Notes under the pieces: model-generated
What the model was told of the DNA's origin: nothing
Database searches by the model: none
What the model saw: only the letters and a program-made list of their open reading frames with translations
Made by a program: the position numbers and the translations under genes
Source of the DNA: Escherichia phage phiWec177
DNA: 64,000 nucleotides
Sequence record: LC739532.1
Direction: 5' to 3' (one strand)
Part shown: positions 3,671 to 20,964 of the stretch, piece by piece
How the letters are laid out: each line of letters begins with the position of its first letter
How positions within the stretch are numbered: the first letter of the stretch is position 1

Positions 3671-4867
3671 ATGAACAAAGTACAGATTATTAAAAAGAAT
3701 GGCTCACTTGAAGAACCTGATATCAAAAAAGTTTTAGCAGCAGTAACTAAGTCAGCTAACAGGGTTGGATATAAAGAACTCCCACCAGATGTTACCCAAG
3801 CTCTTGAGTCAGCATTTATGAGGATTCTGGTAAAGTCCACTAAGCAGAATAATTTGCTGATTTCTGTAAATGATATTCACAGTATTGTTGAGGGTGCTTT
3901 GGCAGAAGTCAATCACGAGATTTATGAGTCTTACTCAACATATAGAAATTACCGTAAAGAAGTTGCTCAAAATTGGGATGAACTCTACCAGAAGACCAAA
4001 GATACACTCTTCTTAGGCGACAGAGAGAATGCTAACTTTGACAGCAGTTTAATTTCTACAAAAGGTTCAATTATTCGTGGTTATCTGACTAAAGAAATCT
4101 TTAAGCAGTACCACTTAACACCAGAGGAACTTGAAGCCATTGAAAAAGGGTTTATCTACATCCATGACTTAAGAGACCTAATTTTTGGTGGTATCAACTG
4201 TTGTCTGTTTGACATCGGTAAAGTACTGAAAGGTGGCTTTGAAATGTCTGGCATTGAATACTGTGAACCAAAGTCTGTGCTGTCGGCCTTACAGGTTATT
4301 GGTGACATAGTTCTTTCAGCAACTGCACAGCAATTTGGTGGTTTTACTTTAGCAGAGATTGATAAGGTACTTGTACCGTATGCTAAGAAGTCTCTACGCT
4401 ATCATGCTGAGAAAGCAGCATCTTATGGTATTCCTAAAGAGCATTACCACAATTATGTCATGGAGCAGCTACAGATTGAACTGACTCAAGGTTTCCAGTC
4501 ACTTGAAATGAAACTAAACACTGTACCTTGTAGTCGTGGGGATTTTGCATTTACAACTTTGACATTCGGGTTACTTGATTCAGATATGTCCAATGAAGAT
4601 AACCGACTGCAATATATGATTGCAAGTACTCTCCTAGATGTTCGTATGAATGGACAAGGTAAGAGCAAGAAACCTGTTGTATTCCCTAAACTGGTTTATA
4701 TTTATGACCAGAAGAGACATAATGAGAATATCTGTCAATGCCACCTGTACAGTAAAGCTATTGAGTGTTGCTCTAAAGCAATGTATCCAGATTTCTTAAG
4801 TGTGTCTGGTCATGGGGCTGTAGCAGAGGCTTTTGAGCGTTCTGGCAAGGTTATTTCGCCGATGGGT
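3671..4867 (+). CDS. nrdD: Anaerobic ribonucleoside-triphosphate reductase, exon 1 (nominal ORF runs to stop at 4870 inside intron)
   Basis: N-terminal ATP-cone-like segment (VQIIKKNGSLEEPDIKKVL); ORF stops 3 nt into a group I intron; C-terminal half of the protein resumes at 5589. Confidence 0.7.
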
Positions 4868-5588
4868 TAACAGGCTCTATAGCTCATCTAAAACGTGCCT
4901 AAACAGGGAAACTCTACATATGTAGACAATCCTGTGCTAAATGATGTACGATGTAAGAAACTATACAACATAGGAGTCTTACATGCCAAACTATCACGTC
5001 ACTGAAGATGGAAAAGTCTTTAGGGAAAATGGTGTAGAGCTTACGCAGTGGAAATCCAACACTGGGTATATGAAAGTGAGGTTTTACGGTAAGAAGAATC
5101 GTGACATGTATGTCCACAGGTTAGTTGCTGAGAAGTATGTACCTAACCCAAATAATCTTCCAATTGTAAAACATAAGGACGATAACAAACTAAATAACCA
5201 CGCATCTAACTTAGAATGGGGTACTCATTCTGAGAATGCTAAAGAAGGTTATGAGAACGGATGCTACAAGTTCCAAAAGCGTTCATATGCCGTGAAAGCC
5301 ACACACAAAGTGACAAAGGAAGTTATTGTTGCTAAGTCAATACGAGAGTTATCCAATATACTTGGACACAATCGCAAGACCATCTCTTCAATATTGAAGG
5401 GTGTGAAAGAGCATAATAACTTTGAGTATGAGTTTGAATACATCTAAATGCCGAACGACTAACCGTGATGAATGTAGCGGTGTAGGGTCAAGCGACTCGA
5501 AATGGTACGCTACTTAGAAATAAGTAGAAGATATAGTCTGGACTTACTGGCGACAGTAAGCAGCTTGAATAAAGCGGGGTAAGCTTAG
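4868..5588 (+). mobile_element. Group I self-splicing intron (IA-like) interrupting nrdD; boundaries approximate to a few nt
   Basis: 5' region resembles phage group I intron P3-P6 as I recall the T4 td intron (CTAAACAGGGAAACTCTACATATGTAGACAATCCTGTGCTAAAT); R-like element CGAACGACTAA (5451-5465); S element AAGATATAGTCTGGAC (5528-5543); P9 hairpin CTTACTG-GCGA-CAGTAAG; U.G pair possible at 4867/4874; G at 5588 before exon 2. Confidence 0.75.
4983..5447 (+). CDS. Intron-encoded HNH homing endonuclease
   Basis: ATG 4983 after AGGAGTC; HNH-type motif (HRLVAEKY...HKDDNKLNNHASNLEWGTHSEN); lies between intron P6 and P7 regions. Confidence 0.75.
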   Translation: MPNYHVTEDGKVFRENGVELTQWKSNTGYMKVRFYGKKNRDMYVHRLVAEKYVPNPNNLPIVKHKDDNKLNNHASNLEWGTHSENAKEGYENGCYKFQKRSYAVKATHKVTKEVIVAKSIRELSNILGHNRKTISSILKGVKEHNNFEYEFEYI

Positions 5589-6557
5589 CGAACTTACCTG
5601 AACAACAAGTGTAGAGCATTTTTATCACCATACTATAACGAATATGGTGAAGAGTTTTATGTAGGTCGTGCAAACATTGGTGCTGTATCTTTGAACTTAC
5701 CGATGATTTACCAGTATTCTAAAGAGAATGGTTTAGATTTCTGGAAAGAGCTTGATAAGTACCTAGAAATAATTCGCAGCTTCCACAAGAAACGCTACGA
5801 AATGATTGCTAATATGCCAGCAAGTTCTAACCCTCTTGCATTTACACAAGGTGGTCTGTATAAAGGAACTAAGAATCCTACTGACAGGGTTGGTTGGGAT
5901 ATTGTGAAGTCCTTCACAGCTTCTTTTGGGGTTACTGCGCTTGATGAGCTATCTGTTCTTGCTGAAGGTAAACGGCTTCATGAAGTTGGAAGCTGTAGTT
6001 TTACATACGATGTTCTGGCATACATTAACATGAAAACTGAAGAGTTTAAAAATGAAGACGGCTTCTTATATGCCGTCTATGGTACTCCAGCAGAATCACT
6101 TTGCGGAACTCAGCTAAAACAGTTCAGAGATATGTTTGGCGTTATCAAAGGTGTTTCTGATAAGGAATACTTTACAAACAGTTTCCATATGAATGTTGCA
6201 GCAGACATATCACCATTTGAGAAGCAGGACTTAGAAGAGCCATTCTTCCATATCTGTAGAGGTGGGAGAATCCAGTATGTCAGGGTAGCTAACCCAGAAA
6301 ACTTAACAGCACTTAAAAGTTGTATTACCAGAGGGATGTTGAAAGGTTTTTATCAGGGGCTTAACTTTGACTTAGCAATCTGTGAACATTGTGGTAACAG
6401 ACCAAAGGCTGATGTTGAAGAATGTGAGGTTTGCCATTCACATGATATCTCTGTGATTAACAGGGTGTGTGGGTATCTTGGATGGACTAAGATTAAAGGT
6501 GAATCCCGAATGAACGATGCAAAAATCGCTGAGATTCGTGATAGAGTCTCTATGTAA
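5589..6557 (+). CDS. nrdD: Anaerobic ribonucleoside-triphosphate reductase, exon 2
   Basis: Frame open from 5589 (track ORF 5691 uses an internal TTG); zinc-ribbon CxxC...CxxC and glycyl-radical motif RVCGYLG near C-terminus. Confidence 0.75.
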   Translation, partial: RTYLNNKCRAFLSPYYNEYGEEFYVGRANIGAVSLNLPMIYQYSKENGLDFWKELDKYLEIIRSFHKKRYEMIANMPASSNPLAFTQGGLYKGTKNPTDRVGWDIVKSFTASFGVTALDELSVLAEGKRLHEVGSCSFTYDVLAYINMKTEEFKNEDGFLYAVYGTPAESLCGTQLKQFRDMFGVIKGVSDKEYFTNSFHMNVAADISPFEKQDLEEPFFHICRGGRIQYVRVANPENLTALKSCITRGMLKGFYQGLNFDLAICEHCGNRPKADVEECEVCHSHDISVINRVCGYLGWTKIKGESRMNDAKIAEIRDRVSM

Positions 6558-6911: not shown

Positions 6912-7303
6912 TTAAGTTGAACCAAAAACAGTTAGAGTGGATTAAAGATTACGCCTCAGAGTGTGGCTCTTGTGAAAAGAACCACGTAAGATACTCAACA
7001 TTCCATACGACCTTCACATTGTATATCGGTGACAATGTTCTAAGTGATTCTGTAGAAGATGGTGTAGCATTGCCTAATGAATTGCTTGACAAATTAGCTG
7101 TAGTCACTGGAACTTGGTCTGAAGAAGATGGGCATGAACTATCTAACGCTGTTGTCTTCTACACCCTTGAAAACATCATGAACCCAGAGTACATTATGCT
7201 AATGACTTGCGCACAAGATTGTGTACCATTACAAAACTTCATTAAAGAACACTGTGAAGAATTTATTACTAAACAGGTTCCTTGTCAGGTAGTGTTTGAA
7301 TGA
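6908..7303 (+). CDS. Hypothetical Cys-rich protein
   Basis: 131 aa ORF, ATGA overlap with upstream ORF. Confidence 0.45.
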   Translation: MIKLNQKQLEWIKDYASECGSCEKNHVRYSTFHTTFTLYIGDNVLSDSVEDGVALPNELLDKLAVVTGTWSEEDGHELSNAVVFYTLENIMNPEYIMLMTCAQDCVPLQNFIKEHCEEFITKQVPCQVVFE

Positions 7304-7338
7304 GTAAAACAATTAAATAGTCTTGGTGAGGTAACTAG

Positions 7339-7824
7339 ATGAATTACATGGAGATTCGACCATTTGACACAGCTAATGGTGAAGGGGTTCGGGTAAGCCT
7401 CTTCGTAGCTGGCTGTAAACATCACTGTGAAGGCTGCTTTAACAGGGAGTCTTGGAAGTTTAATGCTGGTAAAGAGTTTACTTATGCAAACCTCTACGGC
7501 ATCATTAAGTTAATGGATGATAAGGCCATTAGTGGGTTGTCAATACTTGGTGGAGAGCCTCTGGATGACAGAAACATTCAAGAGGTCACCAACATATGCA
7601 AACGTATTAAAACTGTTTACCCAGAAAAATCTATATGGCTTTGGACAGGTTTTCAGTTACACGAAAAAATCCACCTAGATGTGATGAAATATGTTGACGT
7701 GGTGATTGATGGTAAGTATGATTCATCTAAACCAACAGTTAAACCGTATCGTGGTTCTGATAACCAAAACCTCTGGAGAAAAGAGTATGGGTGGCAAGGC
7801 GATTGTCAATGGCGAGCAGAATGA
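7339..7824 (+). CDS. nrdG: Anaerobic ribonucleotide reductase activating protein (radical SAM)
   Basis: CKHHCEGC (CxxxCxxC) radical-SAM cluster motif near N-terminus; about 160 aa; in nrd cluster. Confidence 0.8.
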   Translation: MNYMEIRPFDTANGEGVRVSLFVAGCKHHCEGCFNRESWKFNAGKEFTYANLYGIIKLMDDKAISGLSILGGEPLDDRNIQEVTNICKRIKTVYPEKSIWLWTGFQLHEKIHLDVMKYVDVVIDGKYDSSKPTVKPYRGSDNQNLWRKEYGWQGDCQWRAE

Positions 7825-8667: not shown

Positions 8668-8680
8668 GCAGATACTATAA

Positions 8681-8708
8681 GGGAACTGTAAAGGTTCCCT
8701 TTTTATTT
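8681..8708 (+). terminator. Rho-independent terminator
   Basis: GGGAAC-loop-GTTCCC hairpin followed by TTTTTATTTT. Confidence 0.6.
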
Positions 8709-8718
8709 TGGAGATAAT

Positions 8719-9234
8719 ATGTATCTGTCAAATCTGAAACGTTCTGCTGCAATGTCAGTGTTAAGACTCAGTTTTGAGGAACGTCAAGAGTTCATTGACT
8801 CTCACCAATACGACCCTTCCAACTCCAATCACATGATTCTCTGGAATCGTGAGAGTACTCGTGAAAGAGCATTATTTCGATATTACCCACACTATACCAT
8901 AGACAACCTATATGAATGCTTTGTTGTGAAGAACACCATTACAGTACTCAATAAACTTTGCAGATACACAGGCAGTCAATCCTTCACATTAGGTCACCAC
9001 AAACCTGTTACAAAAGGTGGTGAACATCACTGTGCAAACTGGTTTATCCAGACTAAACTTGATAACCAGAAGCAAGGGGATAGTCTTTTAAGTACCCCTA
9101 AGATGACCTACGAAGAGCAAGAGAAATATATCAAAAATAATATGCCAGATGTGCTTGACAACCACTATACAGATTTGGCAATATCTCTCCTGTTGAAGTT
9201 CGAGACAGTTTATAGGGCAACTTACAATGGCTAA
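8719..9234 (+). CDS. HNH endonuclease-like protein
   Basis: HNH-type motif LGHHKPVTKGGEHHCANW...N...K. Confidence 0.5.
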   Translation: MYLSNLKRSAAMSVLRLSFEERQEFIDSHQYDPSNSNHMILWNRESTRERALFRYYPHYTIDNLYECFVVKNTITVLNKLCRYTGSQSFTLGHHKPVTKGGEHHCANWFIQTKLDNQKQGDSLLSTPKMTYEEQEKYIKNNMPDVLDNHYTDLAISLLLKFETVYRATYNG

Positions 9235-9505
9235 AGAAAAGTGGGAGATTTTACCATTAGTCAGTGAAGGAGGTAATGGTTGTGAAATGTACATGATACG
9301 TGGTCATGTTCCAGAGCCAATTGCACTTGAGATGGTAAACAACTTTACAGATGGTTCTTACAAAGACTTAGGAGAGCCAACTATAAAGCAGCAATGGGTA
9401 AAGCCTGTACCAGACAGCACAGGTAACTGTAGTGTACTTTATCACGTTGTAGACCCTGCAAAATGCAAATCTGCAATGGCAGTAACAAACGTAACTTTTG
9501 ATTGA
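9227..9505 (+). CDS. Hypothetical protein
   Basis: 92 aa ORF, overlapping stops/starts with neighbours. Confidence 0.4.
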   Translation: MAKEKWEILPLVSEGGNGCEMYMIRGHVPEPIALEMVNNFTDGSYKDLGEPTIKQQWVKPVPDSTGNCSVLYHVVDPAKCKSAMAVTNVTFD

Positions 9506-9516
9506 GAGAGAAAACT

Positions 9517-10398
9517 ATGAAAACATCTATCCGTGTTACAGTTCATTCACCAACTAAAGGGACTCATGAAGAAGAGTTTAACATCGTCCAATTCCCTTCT
9601 GGTGAGATTGGTGGACACTTTTCACCGGAGTTTGTTGATTTCACTGCTTATGCAGCATCATCTATCAACAATGTGATTATGATTGTAAAAGGTTATGATA
9701 AGGACACATTGTTTGCTGTGGCACTTGCTAAAGAAGCAATTGATGATTTAATTCCTCATGATTATGCTTTAAAGACTGTCATCTTTTACTACTTACCAAA
9801 TGCACGATATGACCGTCACATGTTTAAAGGCGACGCAGCAGCTTTAAAGGTTTTTGCTAAACAGGTAAATGCAATGGGGTTTGGTGCAGTCTGTGCAGTT
9901 GACCCTCACAGTTACGTTCCAGATAACCTGTTTAACTGCTTCCAGAGTATTCCTCAAAAGGAGATTGCAGTCCACTACGCAAATGACCCACTGATTGATT
10001 ACTTAGTAGCCCCAGATGCAGGTGCTGCTAAGAAGATTGCAGAGACTGCTAAAGAGGTGGATAAACCATACATCACAATGTCTAAAGTGCGTAACCTTAA
10101 GACTGGTGAAATTACTGGTATGCGAATCCTTGATGATGTTGATTTGACAGATAAAACCGTCATGATTCTGGATGATATCTGTGATGGTGGTCGAACCTTC
10201 ATAGAAGCAGCGAAACATCTTCGTGAAGCAGGTGCAAAACGTGTGGAACTATATGTAACACATGGTATCTTCTCTAAAGATGTTGAAAACCTTCTTGACA
10301 ATGGTATCGACCATATTTACACTACAAACTCTTTAGGCGAAGCTAAAGACCGTGGCTTAACACATTACAGTCAAGTTACTGTAGCAAACCTTGATTAG
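9517..10398 (+). CDS. Ribose-phosphate pyrophosphokinase homologue (Prs-like; candidate ADP-ribose pyrophosphokinase of an NAD+ reconstitution pathway)
   Basis: ATG 9517 after GAGAGAG; PRTase motif VMILDDICDGGRTF and Prs-like VTHGIFS; adjacent to NAMPT homologue. Confidence 0.65.
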   Translation: MKTSIRVTVHSPTKGTHEEEFNIVQFPSGEIGGHFSPEFVDFTAYAASSINNVIMIVKGYDKDTLFAVALAKEAIDDLIPHDYALKTVIFYYLPNARYDRHMFKGDAAALKVFAKQVNAMGFGAVCAVDPHSYVPDNLFNCFQSIPQKEIAVHYANDPLIDYLVAPDAGAAKKIAETAKEVDKPYITMSKVRNLKTGEITGMRILDDVDLTDKTVMILDDICDGGRTFIEAAKHLREAGAKRVELYVTHGIFSKDVENLLDNGIDHIYTTNSLGEAKDRGLTHYSQVTVANLD

Positions 10399-10406
10399 GT
10401 AACAGT

Positions 10407-10898
10407 ATGAATAAGGGTTATTTTGAAAAATACCTAATATATGAACCAGATACAGGTTTATTAATTTGGAGAGTAACCCTTTGCAGTACCGCTATTGCTG
10501 GTAATGTGGCTGGCACAAGGTCTAAGAAGGGTTATATCCAAGTCCAGATAAATAAGAAGAGGTACTATGCACATAATATTGCATGGATTATGTCTGGAGG
10601 TGAGATACCAAGTGGATATGAGATAGACCACATAGACCTTGATAAAGCTAATAATAAGTTGGAGAATTTAAGACTTAGCACAAAGTCACAAAATCAGAGG
10701 AATAGGGGTATACACAAGAATAATAAAACTGGTGTGAAGGGTGTAAGTTTTTGTAAACAAACAGGTCTTTACAAAGCAAGAGTCATGCTTTACCGTAAAG
10801 AATACTTTTGTGGAAGATTTAAAACGGTAGAAGAAGCAAAAGAAGCTGTAATTAAAAAGCGAATAGAACTTCATGGTGAGTTTGCAAGACATAACTAA
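10407..10898 (+). CDS. Free-standing HNH-AP2 homing endonuclease
   Basis: HNH-type motif EIDHIDLDKANNKLENLRLSTKSQN plus AP2-like DNA-binding segment GVKGVSF...YKARV...GRFKTVEEAKEA; sits between the two NAD-pathway genes. Confidence 0.65.
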   Translation: MNKGYFEKYLIYEPDTGLLIWRVTLCSTAIAGNVAGTRSKKGYIQVQINKKRYYAHNIAWIMSGGEIPSGYEIDHIDLDKANNKLENLRLSTKSQNQRNRGIHKNNKTGVKGVSFCKQTGLYKARVMLYRKEYFCGRFKTVEEAKEAVIKKRIELHGEFARHN

Positions 10899-10913
10899 GA
10901 GAGAGATTAAAAG

Positions 10914-12695
10914 ATGACTAAATCACTTTATGCAGTACCAGCAGGTCTTAATGCAGATGCTTACAAGGCATCACATATATATCAGTATCCAGATGCTACG
11001 CAATATCTTATGTTGAACCTGACACCACGTAGTGACAAATGGTTTAACAGCCCTTTAGCAATTGACGGTGTAGTGGCTTTTGGTATTCAACGTTTTGTTA
11101 AAGATTACTTGATAGACCACTGGAACGCCACTTTCTTTGAACGTGACAAAAAAGAAGCAATTGACGAAATCTTAGAAGTCATGAACGGTGTTCTAGGTAA
11201 AGATGCTATCGGTCGAGAGCATTGGGAAGCACTTCACGACTTAGGTTATCTACCAGTTGAAGTATACGCTGTAGAAGAAGGCACAGTTGTCCCTATGCGT
11301 GCCCCAATGATTGTCTTCCAGAACACTATTTCAGGTTTCCATTGGGTAGCTGGGTATCTGGAAGATGCTTTCTCTGCTGAGATTTGGAAGGCTTGTACCA
11401 TTGCAACTATTGCATTGCACTACAAACGTATCTGTAAGAAGTGGGCTGACCTTACTTGTGACAACGACTTGCATCTACCCTATCAGTGCCATGACTTTGC
11501 TATGCGTGGTATGTCCGGCTTTACTGATGACGCATTTAACGCTGTAGGTCACTTAACCAGCTTTAAAGGAACTGATAGTTTCCCTGCTGTTTATACAGCT
11601 AAACGCATCTACGGTCAGTCCTACCCAATCTCTGATATTGGTAACTCTGTACCAGCCACTGAACACTCTGTAATGTGTGCAAACATTGCTTGGGAAGGTG
11701 GTAATGAGTTGATTGAAGAAGAAAGACGCTTTAAAGGTGAGTTACAAACCTTCCGTCGTTTCTTAACAGAAACTTACCCAACTGGTATTGCAAGTATTGT
11801 TTCAGATACTTACAACTTCTGGAGAACTGTGTCAGAAATCTTACCAGCACTCCGTAAAGAAATTATGGAACGTGATGGCAAACTGGTAATTCGCCCTGAC
11901 TCTGGAGACCCTGTACATATTGTCACAGGTTATAAAGCAATTCACTTAGAGTGTGCTAAGAAGGCTTATTACGAGCACCTAAGCAAGCTAGAGGCAAGTG
12001 ACACAATGCTGAACTCTGTCCTGAACATGAAGCTTGAAAACATCAATTATGGTATTGCTGGATGGCTACTGTCAGAAGGCTACGAAATGGTTGTTGACAG
12101 AGAAGACTTTGAAGTTGCTGATACAGTGCTGTTGAAAAATGCTTATATGGTTGGTTCTGCAAACGTTGTAACACGTCCTGTAGCGGAGATTGATGGAGCT
12201 ATCAAGACACTGTATAACATCTTTGGGGGAACTATTAACTCTAAAGGGTTTAAGGTACTGGATGAGCATATCGGCCTTATCTATGGTGACTCTATCACGC
12301 TGGAACGTGCAAACGAAATCCTGAAGCGTCTGTATGAAATGGGTTTTGCAAGCTCTAACGTAGTGTTTGGCGTAGGCTCTTACACTTACCAGTACATGAC
12401 TCGTGACACCTTTGCATTTGCTGTTAAAGCAACTCTTGCAAGCATTGGTGGTAAAGAGATTATGCTTGCAAAAGACCCTAAAACAGATAGTGGTGTTAAG
12501 AAGTCTGCTTTTGGTGGTGTAGCACCTATGTGGGATGGTGATAAGTTGAAAGCTGTAGATGGCTATGGATTCCAGAGCTTTGCAGATGCACTTGACCACC
12601 CAGCTTGTGCTTTACGTTTAGTCTTTAGTGACTCTGAGCAGTACGGTTACACATCTCTTGGTGATATTCGAAATAATATTGACAAGCAGCTTTAA
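10914..12695 (+). CDS. Nicotinamide phosphoribosyltransferase family protein (NAMPT/NadV-like; candidate Namat)
   Basis: 593 aa with overall NAMPT-family pattern by recollection; adjacent Prs-like gene. Confidence 0.65.
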   Translation: MTKSLYAVPAGLNADAYKASHIYQYPDATQYLMLNLTPRSDKWFNSPLAIDGVVAFGIQRFVKDYLIDHWNATFFERDKKEAIDEILEVMNGVLGKDAIGREHWEALHDLGYLPVEVYAVEEGTVVPMRAPMIVFQNTISGFHWVAGYLEDAFSAEIWKACTIATIALHYKRICKKWADLTCDNDLHLPYQCHDFAMRGMSGFTDDAFNAVGHLTSFKGTDSFPAVYTAKRIYGQSYPISDIGNSVPATEHSVMCANIAWEGGNELIEEERRFKGELQTFRRFLTETYPTGIASIVSDTYNFWRTVSEILPALRKEIMERDGKLVIRPDSGDPVHIVTGYKAIHLECAKKAYYEHLSKLEASDTMLNSVLNMKLENINYGIAGWLLSEGYEMVVDREDFEVADTVLLKNAYMVGSANVVTRPVAEIDGAIKTLYNIFGGTINSKGFKVLDEHIGLIYGDSITLERANEILKRLYEMGFASSNVVFGVGSYTYQYMTRDTFAFAVKATLASIGGKEIMLAKDPKTDSGVKKSAFGGVAPMWDGDKLKAVDGYGFQSFADALDHPACALRLVFSDSEQYGYTSLGDIRNNIDKQL

Positions 12696-12710
12696 AAGTA
12701 TATGATAAGA

Positions 12711-12732
12711 GGCTCCTACGGGAGCCTTTTTA
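12711..12732 (+). terminator. Rho-independent terminator
   Basis: GGCTCC-tacg-GGAGCC hairpin followed by TTTTT. Confidence 0.65.
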
Positions 12733-12748
12733 ATTTCTGGAGAAAACT

Positions 12749-13084
12749 ATGAAAATCAAAGAGATGAATATCAACATTGTCTTAGAAGAACGTTGGGAGA
12801 ACATTAAGAAACCTGAAAATGGTCATAAGTTCCTTAACAAAATTTTAGTAGCAGCTAAAGAAGAACTGACTGGCAAGATTGCAGCAGCAATCACAATAAA
12901 AATATGTATAAAAGGTCTTCCACAACATCACCAATTTGCGCTTGACGAGTTTAAAGAAAGCTTCTACAATCCAAACAAACAGATGCTTGAAAGTAACTTT
13001 GCAGTATCTACAAGTATCGTCCATGACAGAAGCTTTATCCTTTACAAAAATATGAGAGGTGAGTCATGCAAGCATATTGGATAG
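12749..13084 (+). CDS. Hypothetical protein
   Basis: 111 aa ORF after terminator. Confidence 0.45.
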   Translation: MKIKEMNINIVLEERWENIKKPENGHKFLNKILVAAKEELTGKIAAAITIKICIKGLPQHHQFALDEFKESFYNPNKQMLESNFAVSTSIVHDRSFILYKNMRGESCKHIG

Positions 13085-20184: not shown

Positions 20185-20964
20185 ATGGGTATTGTAAAAG
20201 TTGTAAAAGGTAACTTACTAGCTGCCTTCAAAAACACAGACATTGAGTTAATTGCTCATGGTTGCAACTGTCGTAACCTCATGGGTGCTGGAATCGCTCA
20301 AAAAATTGCTAAGATTTTCCCAAAAGCTGAAGAAGCTGACCGGAAGTTCCATAAAAAGTTTGGCTACAGTGCCCATGATATCGGATACCAGATGGCTGGT
20401 GAGGTGTCACATGCTCGAACGGAGTATGGTTACATTTTTAACCTATATACACAGTTGGATGTTGGGAAGTGTGCATCATACCGATACTTAGTGGAGTCAC
20501 TAGAAAAACTCCGTAAATTTTGCTGGCTGCACAACATTCGTAAGATTGGTTTACCCATGATTGGGGCAGGTATAGGCGGTTTAGATGCACAAGCTGTGAA
20601 AAGCCTCATTAATAGTGTTATGTATAACGTTGATGTGTACCTATACGTCTATGATGAAGCAATGGCAAGTGTAGTTACCACTAAGTATGCTACCTCAGCA
20701 CCACAATTCTATGATGGTGTCGTGCTAAGTGACGGGAAGACTAATCAAGTTACCCTCTATCAGCTTGTTGATGGCAAGGTTGAGGTTAGTTACCCTCTGG
20801 TTAGTGAGATGGGTATGTGTAACAGTGAAATGTTCCCAGTTGACCCGTTTGGAAGATATGAAGGTGTATTCTTTGATAACTACCCAGCAGCGTACATCTA
20901 CACAACAAATCAGGATGAAGTTCACTACTTGCTGTATTCTAAAAAGTTCAAATTCATAAGCTGA
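20185..20964 (+). CDS. Macro-domain protein (ADP-ribose binding/hydrolase fold) with C-terminal extension
   Basis: Macro-domain signature IAHGCNCRNLMGAGIA ... LPMIGAGIGGL in the first ~150 aa. Confidence 0.65.
   Translation: MGIVKVVKGNLLAAFKNTDIELIAHGCNCRNLMGAGIAQKIAKIFPKAEEADRKFHKKFGYSAHDIGYQMAGEVSHARTEYGYIFNLYTQLDVGKCASYRYLVESLEKLRKFCWLHNIRKIGLPMIGAGIGGLDAQAVKSLINSVMYNVDVYLYVYDEAMASVVTTKYATSAPQFYDGVVLSDGKTNQVTLYQLVDGKVEVSYPLVSEMGMCNSEMFPVDPFGRYEGVFFDNYPAAYIYTTNQDEVHYLLYSKKFKFIS

Follow-up and report, generated by a model that had tools for sequence, protein, structure and literature searches.

NARP1, a two-enzyme pathway of NAD+ reconstitution, was discovered in phage Bas63 (JohannRWettstein, MZ501086), a Felixounavirus (10.1101/2024.02.11.579819). 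Deletion of genes 79-80 of this phage resulted in about 20-fold fewer plaques on SIR2-HerA cells, the ion of ADP-ribose pyrophosphate (ADPR-PP) being lost as well, and the effect of these two genes was independent of host pncC and nadR (10.1101/2024.02.11.579819). The Adps enzyme of SPbetaL1 converts ADP-ribose (ADPR) and ATP into ADPR-PP, and gave no product in a Prs activity test (10.1101/2024.02.11.579819). Its partner Namat makes NAD+ from ADPR-PP and nicotinamide, with ADPR-PP preferred over phosphoribosyl pyrophosphate (PRPP). The locus described here lies at positions 8719-12695 of a stretch of 64,000 nucleotides (nt) of Escherichia phage phiWec177 (LC739532.1), the whole of which is called the window below. 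It is, with high confidence, a NARP1 anti-defence operon with a free-standing HNH_3/AP2 homing-endonuclease gene located between its two enzyme genes. The original prediction had proposed a NARP1-type pair at this place, which is borne out by the syntenic Bas63 orthologues (Bas63_0079 and Bas63_0080, 78 and 97% identical), by the presence of a clamp signature and by the listing of the same locus, under phiWec172, in the supplementary tables of the NARP1 study.

The region is indeed 100% identical at the nt level to Escherichia phage phiWec172 (LC739530.1, Felixounavirus), and 95% identical to many Felix O1-like phages. Genome-wide statements made here refer to the window together with positions 25000-47300 of LC739530.1 (piece L006), which amount to the whole 85,970-bp genome of phiWec172. 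Gene LC739530_00026 appears in Sup Table 1 (Prs/Adps sheet) of Osterman et al. (10.1101/2024.02.11.579819) and gene LC739530_00024 in Sup Table 2 (Namat sheet), where it is labelled "Adps-associated" (10.1101/2024.02.11.579819). Because of these entries the locus has to be regarded as already catalogued, and since NARP1 itself has been described, little is new in its identification. In GenBank the two phiWec172 genes are named "nadR: ribose-phosphate pyrophosphokinase" and "hypothetical protein". Five open reading frames (ORFs), all on the + strand, are found in 8719-12695, encoding 171, 92, 293, 163 and 593 amino acids (aa); they include all those put forward initially, as well as one at 9227-9505 which had not been mentioned. 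A Namat gene is found within ten genes of adps, the distance that defines membership of NARP1. The work of Osterman et al. was reportedly published later, in Nature in 2024.

The first enzyme gene, adps (9517-10398, + strand), encodes 293 residues from its ATG, an alternative TTG start being located upstream at 9502. By orthology, its product is predicted to be a Prs-family protein, namely the NARP1 enzyme ADP-ribose pyrophosphokinase (ADPR-PP synthetase). Profile searches in Pfam and PHROG gave matches far beyond chance (Pribosyltran 1.2e-11, Pribosyl_synth 4.4e-10, phrog_619 5.9e-97), and a Prs homologue is thus present where it had been claimed. The choice between Prs and Adps, which had been called undecidable by eye, could be made by comparison, and falls on the side of Adps. 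The protein is 78% identical to Bas63_0079, and it matches SPbetaL1 Adps (36% identity, E 3e-29) better than E. coli Prs (29%, E 2e-15). Its K190, in the segment MSKVRNLKTGE, is aligned to the catalytic K162 of SPbetaL1 Adps (GHKQRNFHTGE), the counterpart in B. subtilis Prs being K197, and is the predicted catalytic lysine; the PRPP-type loop reads DDICDGGRT.

These comparisons bear directly on a conventional salvage reading of the pair, in which a true PRPP synthetase and a true NadV would produce nicotinamide mononucleotide (NMN), to be finished by host NadR or PncC. Such a route would agree with the names given to both proteins by Pfam, PHROG and GenBank, and Adps does pass the broad TIGR01251 subfamily model, albeit marginally (123.6 bits vs 113). 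This is however the only such model that it passes. Scores of 42-104 bits were obtained with the Prs equivalog and PRK-type models of NCBIfam, as compared with cut-offs of 296-536, which are missed at least 3-fold, and most NCBIfam Prs-model matches begin near residue 87. The lack of product from SPbetaL1 Adps in the Prs activity test also speaks against salvage, as does the ability of the Bas63 orthologues to function in a pncC nadR double-deletion host and to yield ADPR-PP in vivo. Osterman et al. moreover include the protein in their Adps list and give it an associated Namat. The salvage reading appears exceedingly improbable on these grounds, and the second enzyme leads to the same assessment.

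This second gene, namat (10914-12695, + strand, 593 aa), encodes a Nampt-family protein, predicted by orthology to be the nicotinamide ADPR-transferase of NARP1. The proposal of a NAMPT homologue at these positions is well founded, with matches again far beyond chance to NAPRTase (7.9e-35), NAMPT_N (9.3e-6) and phrog_448 (5.5e-201), from the same profile searches. The protein is 97% identical to Bas63_0080, and a search of the PDB places entries 9w5w/9w5x on top (E 8.6e-128), which are probably the crystal structures of SPbetaL1 Namat (PMC12774641). In the SPbetaL1 Namat crystal structure, nicotinamide/NMN is bound by F189, R192, D215, the catalytic His, R306 and D308 (PMC12774641); F195, R198, D221, H251, R327 and D329 align to this core in the window protein, where all of them are conserved. 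In vitro, Namat homologues do make NMN from PRPP when ADPR-PP is absent, which would suit a salvage function. The feature that discriminates Namat from Nampt is however a clamp-helix signature, GSxPhixPhixPhiTRD, in which positions 3 and 7 are aromatic, and it is present in the window protein as G488-SYTYQYMTRD-498. A selectivity-clamp loop is defined by Arg, Lys or Tyr at its third position and by a stacking residue, which was modelled as the fourth in Bas63. The loop found here, TPRSDKWF, has K42 followed by W43 and is identical to that of Bas63 Namat. Compared with SPbetaL1 Namat and human NAMPT, the Felixounavirus protein has about 75 extra aa at residues ~353-427 (window 11970-12194), as does that of Bas63, and a second, smaller insertion near residues 259-273.

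A Pfam scan of the ORFs of at least 140 aa in the window and in the remaining 22 kb (L006), leaving out the tape-measure ORF, two tail-fibre ORFs and one N-terminal NrdA piece, revealed no CTP_transf_like/NMNAT match, which excludes NARP2. The absence of NMNAT noted originally for the window is thus valid for nearly the whole genome. No Macro or RyR match was obtained in 8719-9234, 9227-9505, 10407-10898 or 12749-13084 with Pfam at E up to 1, and accessory ADPR-processing genes (Macro/Adpp, RyR/RyDEP) could be rejected for the small ORFs flanking the pair. With no operon-internal Macro or RyR gene, the locus corresponds to plain NARP1 and not to either extended variant reported in 2026. The only Macro-domain protein found, of 259 aa, is encoded further away, at 20185-20964 (+ strand), about 7.5 kb downstream of namat. 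It matches PF01661 at 1.1e-6, above cut-off, and its best NCBIfam match, far below cut-off, is the DarG antitoxin ADP-ribosyl glycohydrolase (8.5e-15). It is about 40% identical to its Felix O1 counterpart and is found at 95% or more in just 12 phage records; it may counter DarT, process ADPR or act as a distal, Adpp-like NARP1 partner.

The expected course of events can be outlined as follows. An effector of the host with NADase activity (such as SIR2, TIR or SEFIR) would split NAD+ into ADPR and nicotinamide. At the expense of ATP, Adps would then add pyrophosphate to the free ribose of ADPR, and Namat would put nicotinamide in place of the pyrophosphate of the resulting ADPR-PP, which would restore NAD+ and allow phage replication to continue. 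This chemistry, shown in vivo for Bas63 and in vitro for SPbetaL1, is predicted for the present enzymes from orthology and conserved residues.

The third component of the operon is a homing-endonuclease cassette (10399-10898, + strand), made of an 8-nt leader, GTAACAGT, and of an ORF of 163 aa (10407-10898). It is followed by the ribosome-binding spacer of namat, GAGAGAGATTAAAAG (10899-10913, + strand), which was delimited by junction alignment. The distance from the adps stop to the namat start is 516 nt and the HNH gene is the sole ORF in this interval. An HNH-AP2 endonuclease had been announced exactly between the two enzyme genes. Its place is right and its nuclease part is firmly identified (HNH_3 5.6e-19, phrog_99 3.8e-68), the AP2 match being under the Pfam cut-off (3.8e-4, 21 bits). 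A DHID...N...N motif is conserved in all seven translated HNH copies; the ORF is intact in each of them, with a ratio of nonsynonymous to synonymous divergence (dN/dS) of 0.09-0.17.

The junctions were compared in 15 loci, namely the window, Bas63 and 13 further Ounavirinae, eight of which carry the HNH gene (HNH+). The gene is present at the identical site in these eight, which span Felixounavirus (Felix O1 included), Suspvirus and Mooglevirus; Bas63 and the six remaining loci do not have it. Among about 257 related records, 63 contain the cassette. In Bas63, the two enzyme genes are separated by a 45-nt spacer, in which a hairpin, GGGGCTTGAAAGCCCC, is followed by ATTTT and then by the namat ribosome-binding region. 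This hairpin, which folds as RNA at -13.2 kcal/mol (z -2.5), is found in all seven HNH-less loci and in none of the eight HNH+ ones, the cassette replacing about 30 nt of conserved hairpin. The HNH+ junctions are all alike, with the adps stop TAG, the 8-nt leader, the 492-nt ORF and a GAGAGA-type spacer. The right junction of phiWec172 shows a particular feature: it is of the HNH-less type, GAGAGAGATTAAAAG ATGACTAAA, with MTK as namat codons 1-3 (10899-10925), as compared with ATGAGTAA and MSK in the other HNH+ loci. It is the only one of the eight with such a junction, which implies that recombination ended precisely at the stop codon of HNH.

An insertion of this kind raises the question of whether it has uncoupled or crippled the operon, leaving NARP1 as a decaying remnant in this phage. 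The deletion of a hairpin that all seven HNH-less loci retain, and the 500 nt of foreign sequence that now split the cistrons, could be read in this way. Both ORFs are however of full length and under strong purifying selection (dN/dS of 0.02-0.04 for namat and 0.04-0.17 for adps), namat keeps a ribosome-binding spacer of the GAGAGAGA type, and there is no terminator-like site in 8701-12707 except for weak intragenic matches. The HNH+ arrangement also persists in about 60 sequenced phages from three genera, Felix O1 among them. Decay is therefore very improbable: since both enzyme genes are intact and namat has its own ribosome-binding site, the NARP1 pathway should still work.

As to the origin of the cassette, synonymous divergence (dS) between the window and phiSUSP1 is 0.40 for HNH, compared with 1.62 for namat, 1.55 for the 5' part of adps and 0.79 for its 3' part. 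HNH dS is 0.20 between Felix O1 and phiSUSP1, and 0.40 between Felix O1 and the window. Because the HNH gene is less diverged than its flanks across genera, and because its relationships conflict with those of the flanking genes, these values point to horizontal spread. A further trace could have been left in the first 60-100 nt or so of namat (HNH-linked 5' haplotype, 10914-11015, + strand). A haplotype encoding ...YKASHI... is present in all eight HNH+ loci and in two of the seven HNH-less ones, the other five encoding ...YKSGHV..., and the contrast recurs independently in Mooglevirus/Suspvirus. This pattern fits a co-conversion tract, and suggests that the endonuclease target lies in or near the codons of the N-terminal pocket segment (D15, Y17). 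Most likely, the HNH gene would have entered by cutting an HNH-less genome near the adps-namat junction during co-infection and by being copied in the course of recombinational repair, an event that would have swapped out the conserved intergenic hairpin and transferred the first 60-100 nt or so of namat with the gene. The proposal of homing activity around this locus is accordingly retained for the middle HNH gene, which is polymorphic, site-specific and apparently spread horizontally, and not for the upstream gene discussed below, which is conserved and syntenic. That homing endonucleases are numerous and variable in Felix O1-like genomes was already known.

The HNH gene could also be an old resident, now immobile and repeatedly lost, rather than an active homing endonuclease. 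This view would account for tootiki and Seyj1-1, the two phages that have the HNH-type namat haplotype and are HNH-less, as expected from a precise loss. It is also in line with an HNH gene that is sometimes more diverged than its flanks within Felixounavirus, as between the window and Felix O1, where HNH dS is 0.40 and that of the adps 3' part 0.06. Across genera, on the contrary, the synonymous divergence of HNH is 2-4 times below that of the flanking genes, and the tree conflict (the Felix O1 gene being nearer to that of phiSUSP1 than to that of the window) also speaks against this view. Furthermore, the same conserved hairpin in every HNH-less locus looks like an empty site and not like deletion scars. 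An immobile resident is on balance unlikely, and homing better explains the middle gene.

The adps gene has a history of its own. Nucleotide identity to Bas63 is about 95% on either side of it, falls to 58-78% over its nt 1-500, with a drop that starts right at the start codon, and is about 90% in its 3' part; sliding identity delimits the dimorphic 5' part as 9517-10030 (+ strand). Two classes of alleles can be recognised by their first residues, MKTSIRVT in the window, VpaE1, pinkbiff, ASO1A, warpig, TP1 and Seyj1-1, and MKTVIEAV in Bas63, Felix O1 and tootiki. Both coexist in Felixounavirus, independently of the HNH state. Between the classes dS is saturated, at about 2-3, nonsynonymous divergence (dN) is 0.22-0.24 and dN/dS about 0.08-0.10, and the depth of their divergence equals that between genera. 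Because of this saturation, of the low dN/dS and of a divergence as deep as that between genera, the two classes are best described, from these comparisons, as old functional alleles swapped by recombination and not as fast-evolving sequence.

Several of these observations weigh against the interpretation of the locus as a working NARP1 operon invaded by a homing gene, and have to be considered together. The main residual uncertainty on function is that the allele tested in vivo, that of Bas63, is of another class than the Adps of the window: over its first 180 residues, the window-class protein is only about two-thirds identical to the tested allele. The PDB sequence search with Adps yielded no Adps structure and only Prs structures, with an archaeal Prs on top (5e-18). 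With the intercistronic hairpin lost, the balance of expression could differ from that of Bas63. On the side of homing, the evidence consists of comparative patterns in 15 loci that are phylogenetically non-independent, and the HNH-type namat haplotype of tootiki and Seyj1-1 is not confined to carriers of the gene.

A more ambitious scheme can be drawn from the same elements. The NARP1 locus would be a recombination hot spot upheld by the resident HNH gene, which would use the DNA encoding the N-terminal nicotinamide pocket of Namat as its target; the hairpin would have been erased, with a possible change in the Adps:Namat ratio, and the two Adps N-terminal alleles would be shuffled by gene conversion and kept by balancing selection, for example by way of a host factor able to sense or inhibit Adps. 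This scheme as a whole is unlikely. The polymorphic homing endonuclease within the operon, the loss of the hairpin in HNH+ phages and the Adps N-terminal dimorphism nevertheless provide leads on how anti-defence loci evolve; homing-endonuclease anatomy, lost hairpin and dimorphism are minor leads, none of which amounts to a discovery. In practical terms, the operon predicts that Felix O1-group phage-therapy candidates would resist NAD+-depleting defences (SIR2-HerA, DSR, type I Thoeris, SEFIR). It can also be mentioned that a sequence-only reading recognised the NARP1 operon despite the misleading "Prs/NadV" annotations.

The transcription unit probably begins downstream of a terminator-like hairpin at 8679-8701 (+ strand), with a 9-bp stem, four GC pairs and a T tail, TTTATTTT, which lies just upstream of the gene block and would mark its 5' boundary. 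A similar hairpin at 12707-12730 (+ strand), 12 nt past the namat stop, with a 10-bp stem, five GC pairs and a T-rich tail, is probably the 3' boundary; both are defined by a consensus match only. A scan of the whole window with Rfam gave nothing in the NARP1 locus, tRNAs being the only matches.

Two conserved genes precede adps within these boundaries. The first (8719-9234, + strand) encodes a protein of 171 aa that belongs to phrog_3500 (1.5e-91), a family of unknown function. It had been taken for a second HNH gene and a sign of homing. The ORF is real, its HNH identity is weak (phrog_2214, 2.8e-4, with no HNH match in Pfam or NCBIfam), and homing is not borne out. A PDB sequence search returned nothing but spurious hits of low complexity on Protein A repeats. 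The protein does contain an HNH-like pattern, H93...N107...N116, and homologues at 38-39% identity keep GH(H/Y)xPxxKGGxH...NWxIQT...N invariant. In an AlphaFold2 (AF2) model with a predicted local distance difference test (pLDDT) score of 74.8, a beta-beta-alpha unit at residues 89-121 spans this pattern, and fold searches were not significant; the protein may at best be called HNH-like. Homologues are found in 428 phage records, with coverage of the protein reaching 80% or more in 399, and the gene is 94% identical at the nt level to that of Bas63, which is the same as the genomic background. Because both upstream genes share the terminator-bounded unit, a role as NARP1 accessory factors was envisaged for them; it was rejected for the 171-aa gene, given that in phi92-like and phAPEC8-like phages the homologue adjoins a helicase gene, with no NARP1 nearby, and that different genes are located upstream of adps in Mooglevirus Mordin and Henu11 and in Felixounavirus Seyj1-1. 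It is a core, syntenic and immobile gene, with no evidence of homing, and is not a NARP1 accessory.

The second gene (9227-9505, + strand) starts in overlap with the stop of the first and ends 11 nt before adps. Its product, a conserved hypothetical protein of 92 aa (phrog_4726), is found in 230 records, all from Felix O1-like Ounavirinae, and has no match in Pfam or NCBIfam. No use could be made of position-wise identity in the segment preceding adps for phiSUSP1, Mijalis, Henu11, Mordin and Seyj1-1, which are out of register or non-homologous there.

Further indel polymorphism is seen around NARP1, since two small Bas63 genes are missing here, bas63_0072 (300 nt, before nrdG) and bas63_0081 (345 nt, directly after namat). 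The corresponding sites are 7303-7339 and 12695-12749 in the window, vs 761-1060 and 6009-6353 in the Bas63 piece L005. The anaerobic ribonucleotide reductase gene nrdD is in two pieces (3671-4870 and 5691-6557, + strand) around an HNH_3 ORF (4983-5447), and the equivalent nrdD in the Bas63 record is a two-piece join with an internal homing endonuclease. The DNA polymerase region (L006 9656-13135) has two ORFs, of 727 and 184 aa, vs a single 909-aa gene in Bas63, and is followed by a second HNH_3 and AP2 endonuclease that is paralogous to the one between adps and namat. L006 2250-2747 codes for a SegE-like endonuclease of the GIY-YIG type. A tRNA cluster at 37630-43229 (+ strand), which is a Felix O1-like trait, contains 24 genes according to ARAGORN and 23 according to Rfam; an ORF within it (38135-38656) overlaps the end of tRNA-Tyr and has an HNH-looking 'EHKIPW...N' motif. 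Finally, Felixounavirus NARP1 DNA is found at 97-98% identity in two records labelled as phages of other hosts, GU169904 (Staphylococcus phage SA1) and MG065664 (Campylobacter phage A132), which are probably contaminated or mislabelled assemblies.

When the locus is set against described systems, Bas63 NARP1 is the closest. It belongs to the same genus and occupies the same place between nrdG and rIIA, with the same upstream genes; genes 77-80 match the window ORFs in order and in length (Adps 293 aa, Namat 593 aa), the C-terminal third of Adps is about 96% identical and the Namat clamp residues are identical. It differs in what lies between the two genes, a 45-nt spacer with a GC hairpin in Bas63 and a 500-nt HNH cassette in the window, and in the N-terminal two-thirds of Adps, which is of the other allele class, the overall Adps identity being 78%. 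The cassette itself resembles free-standing phage homing endonucleases (T4 Seg/Mob; the HNH-AP2 enzymes that have long been annotated in Felix O1) in being an intergenic ORF with a presence/absence polymorphism at a fixed site, in having flanking polymorphisms linked to the ORF, and in the fusion of a DNA-binding domain (AP2-like) to the nuclease. Homing of the present gene is a prediction from comparative patterns, and its AP2 match is below the Pfam threshold.

The NARP1 of the Bacillus phage SPbetaL1 shares the two-enzyme architecture, the catalytic Lys of Adps, the Namat core and the GSxPhixPhixPhiTRD helix (PMC12774641). It is far more distant, with identities to the window proteins of only 36% (Adps) and 43-45% (Namat). 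The window Namat also differs by its insertion of about 75 aa (353-427), by a longer clamp loop and by Lys-Trp in place of the stacking Arg40 of SPbetaL1. The adps and namat genes of SPbetaL1 overlap, with no sequence in between. NARP2 of Vibrio phage KVP40 (Nampt/NadV and Nmnat/NatV) is comparable in that a Nampt-family enzyme restores NAD+ during infection. NARP2 however requires Nmnat and uses PRPP, whereas the partner found here is a Prs-family Adps and no Nmnat domain was detected in the scan described above. A third gene in or beside the operon is also found in extended forms of NARP1, which contain either the Macro-domain phosphatase Adpp (NARP1-AP, 10.64898/2026.01.28.702374) or the RyR-domain glycosidase RyDEP (10.64898/2026.05.28.727677). 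The gene inserted in the window is in contrast an HNH_3/AP2 endonuclease, that is, a selfish element and not an ADPR-processing enzyme.

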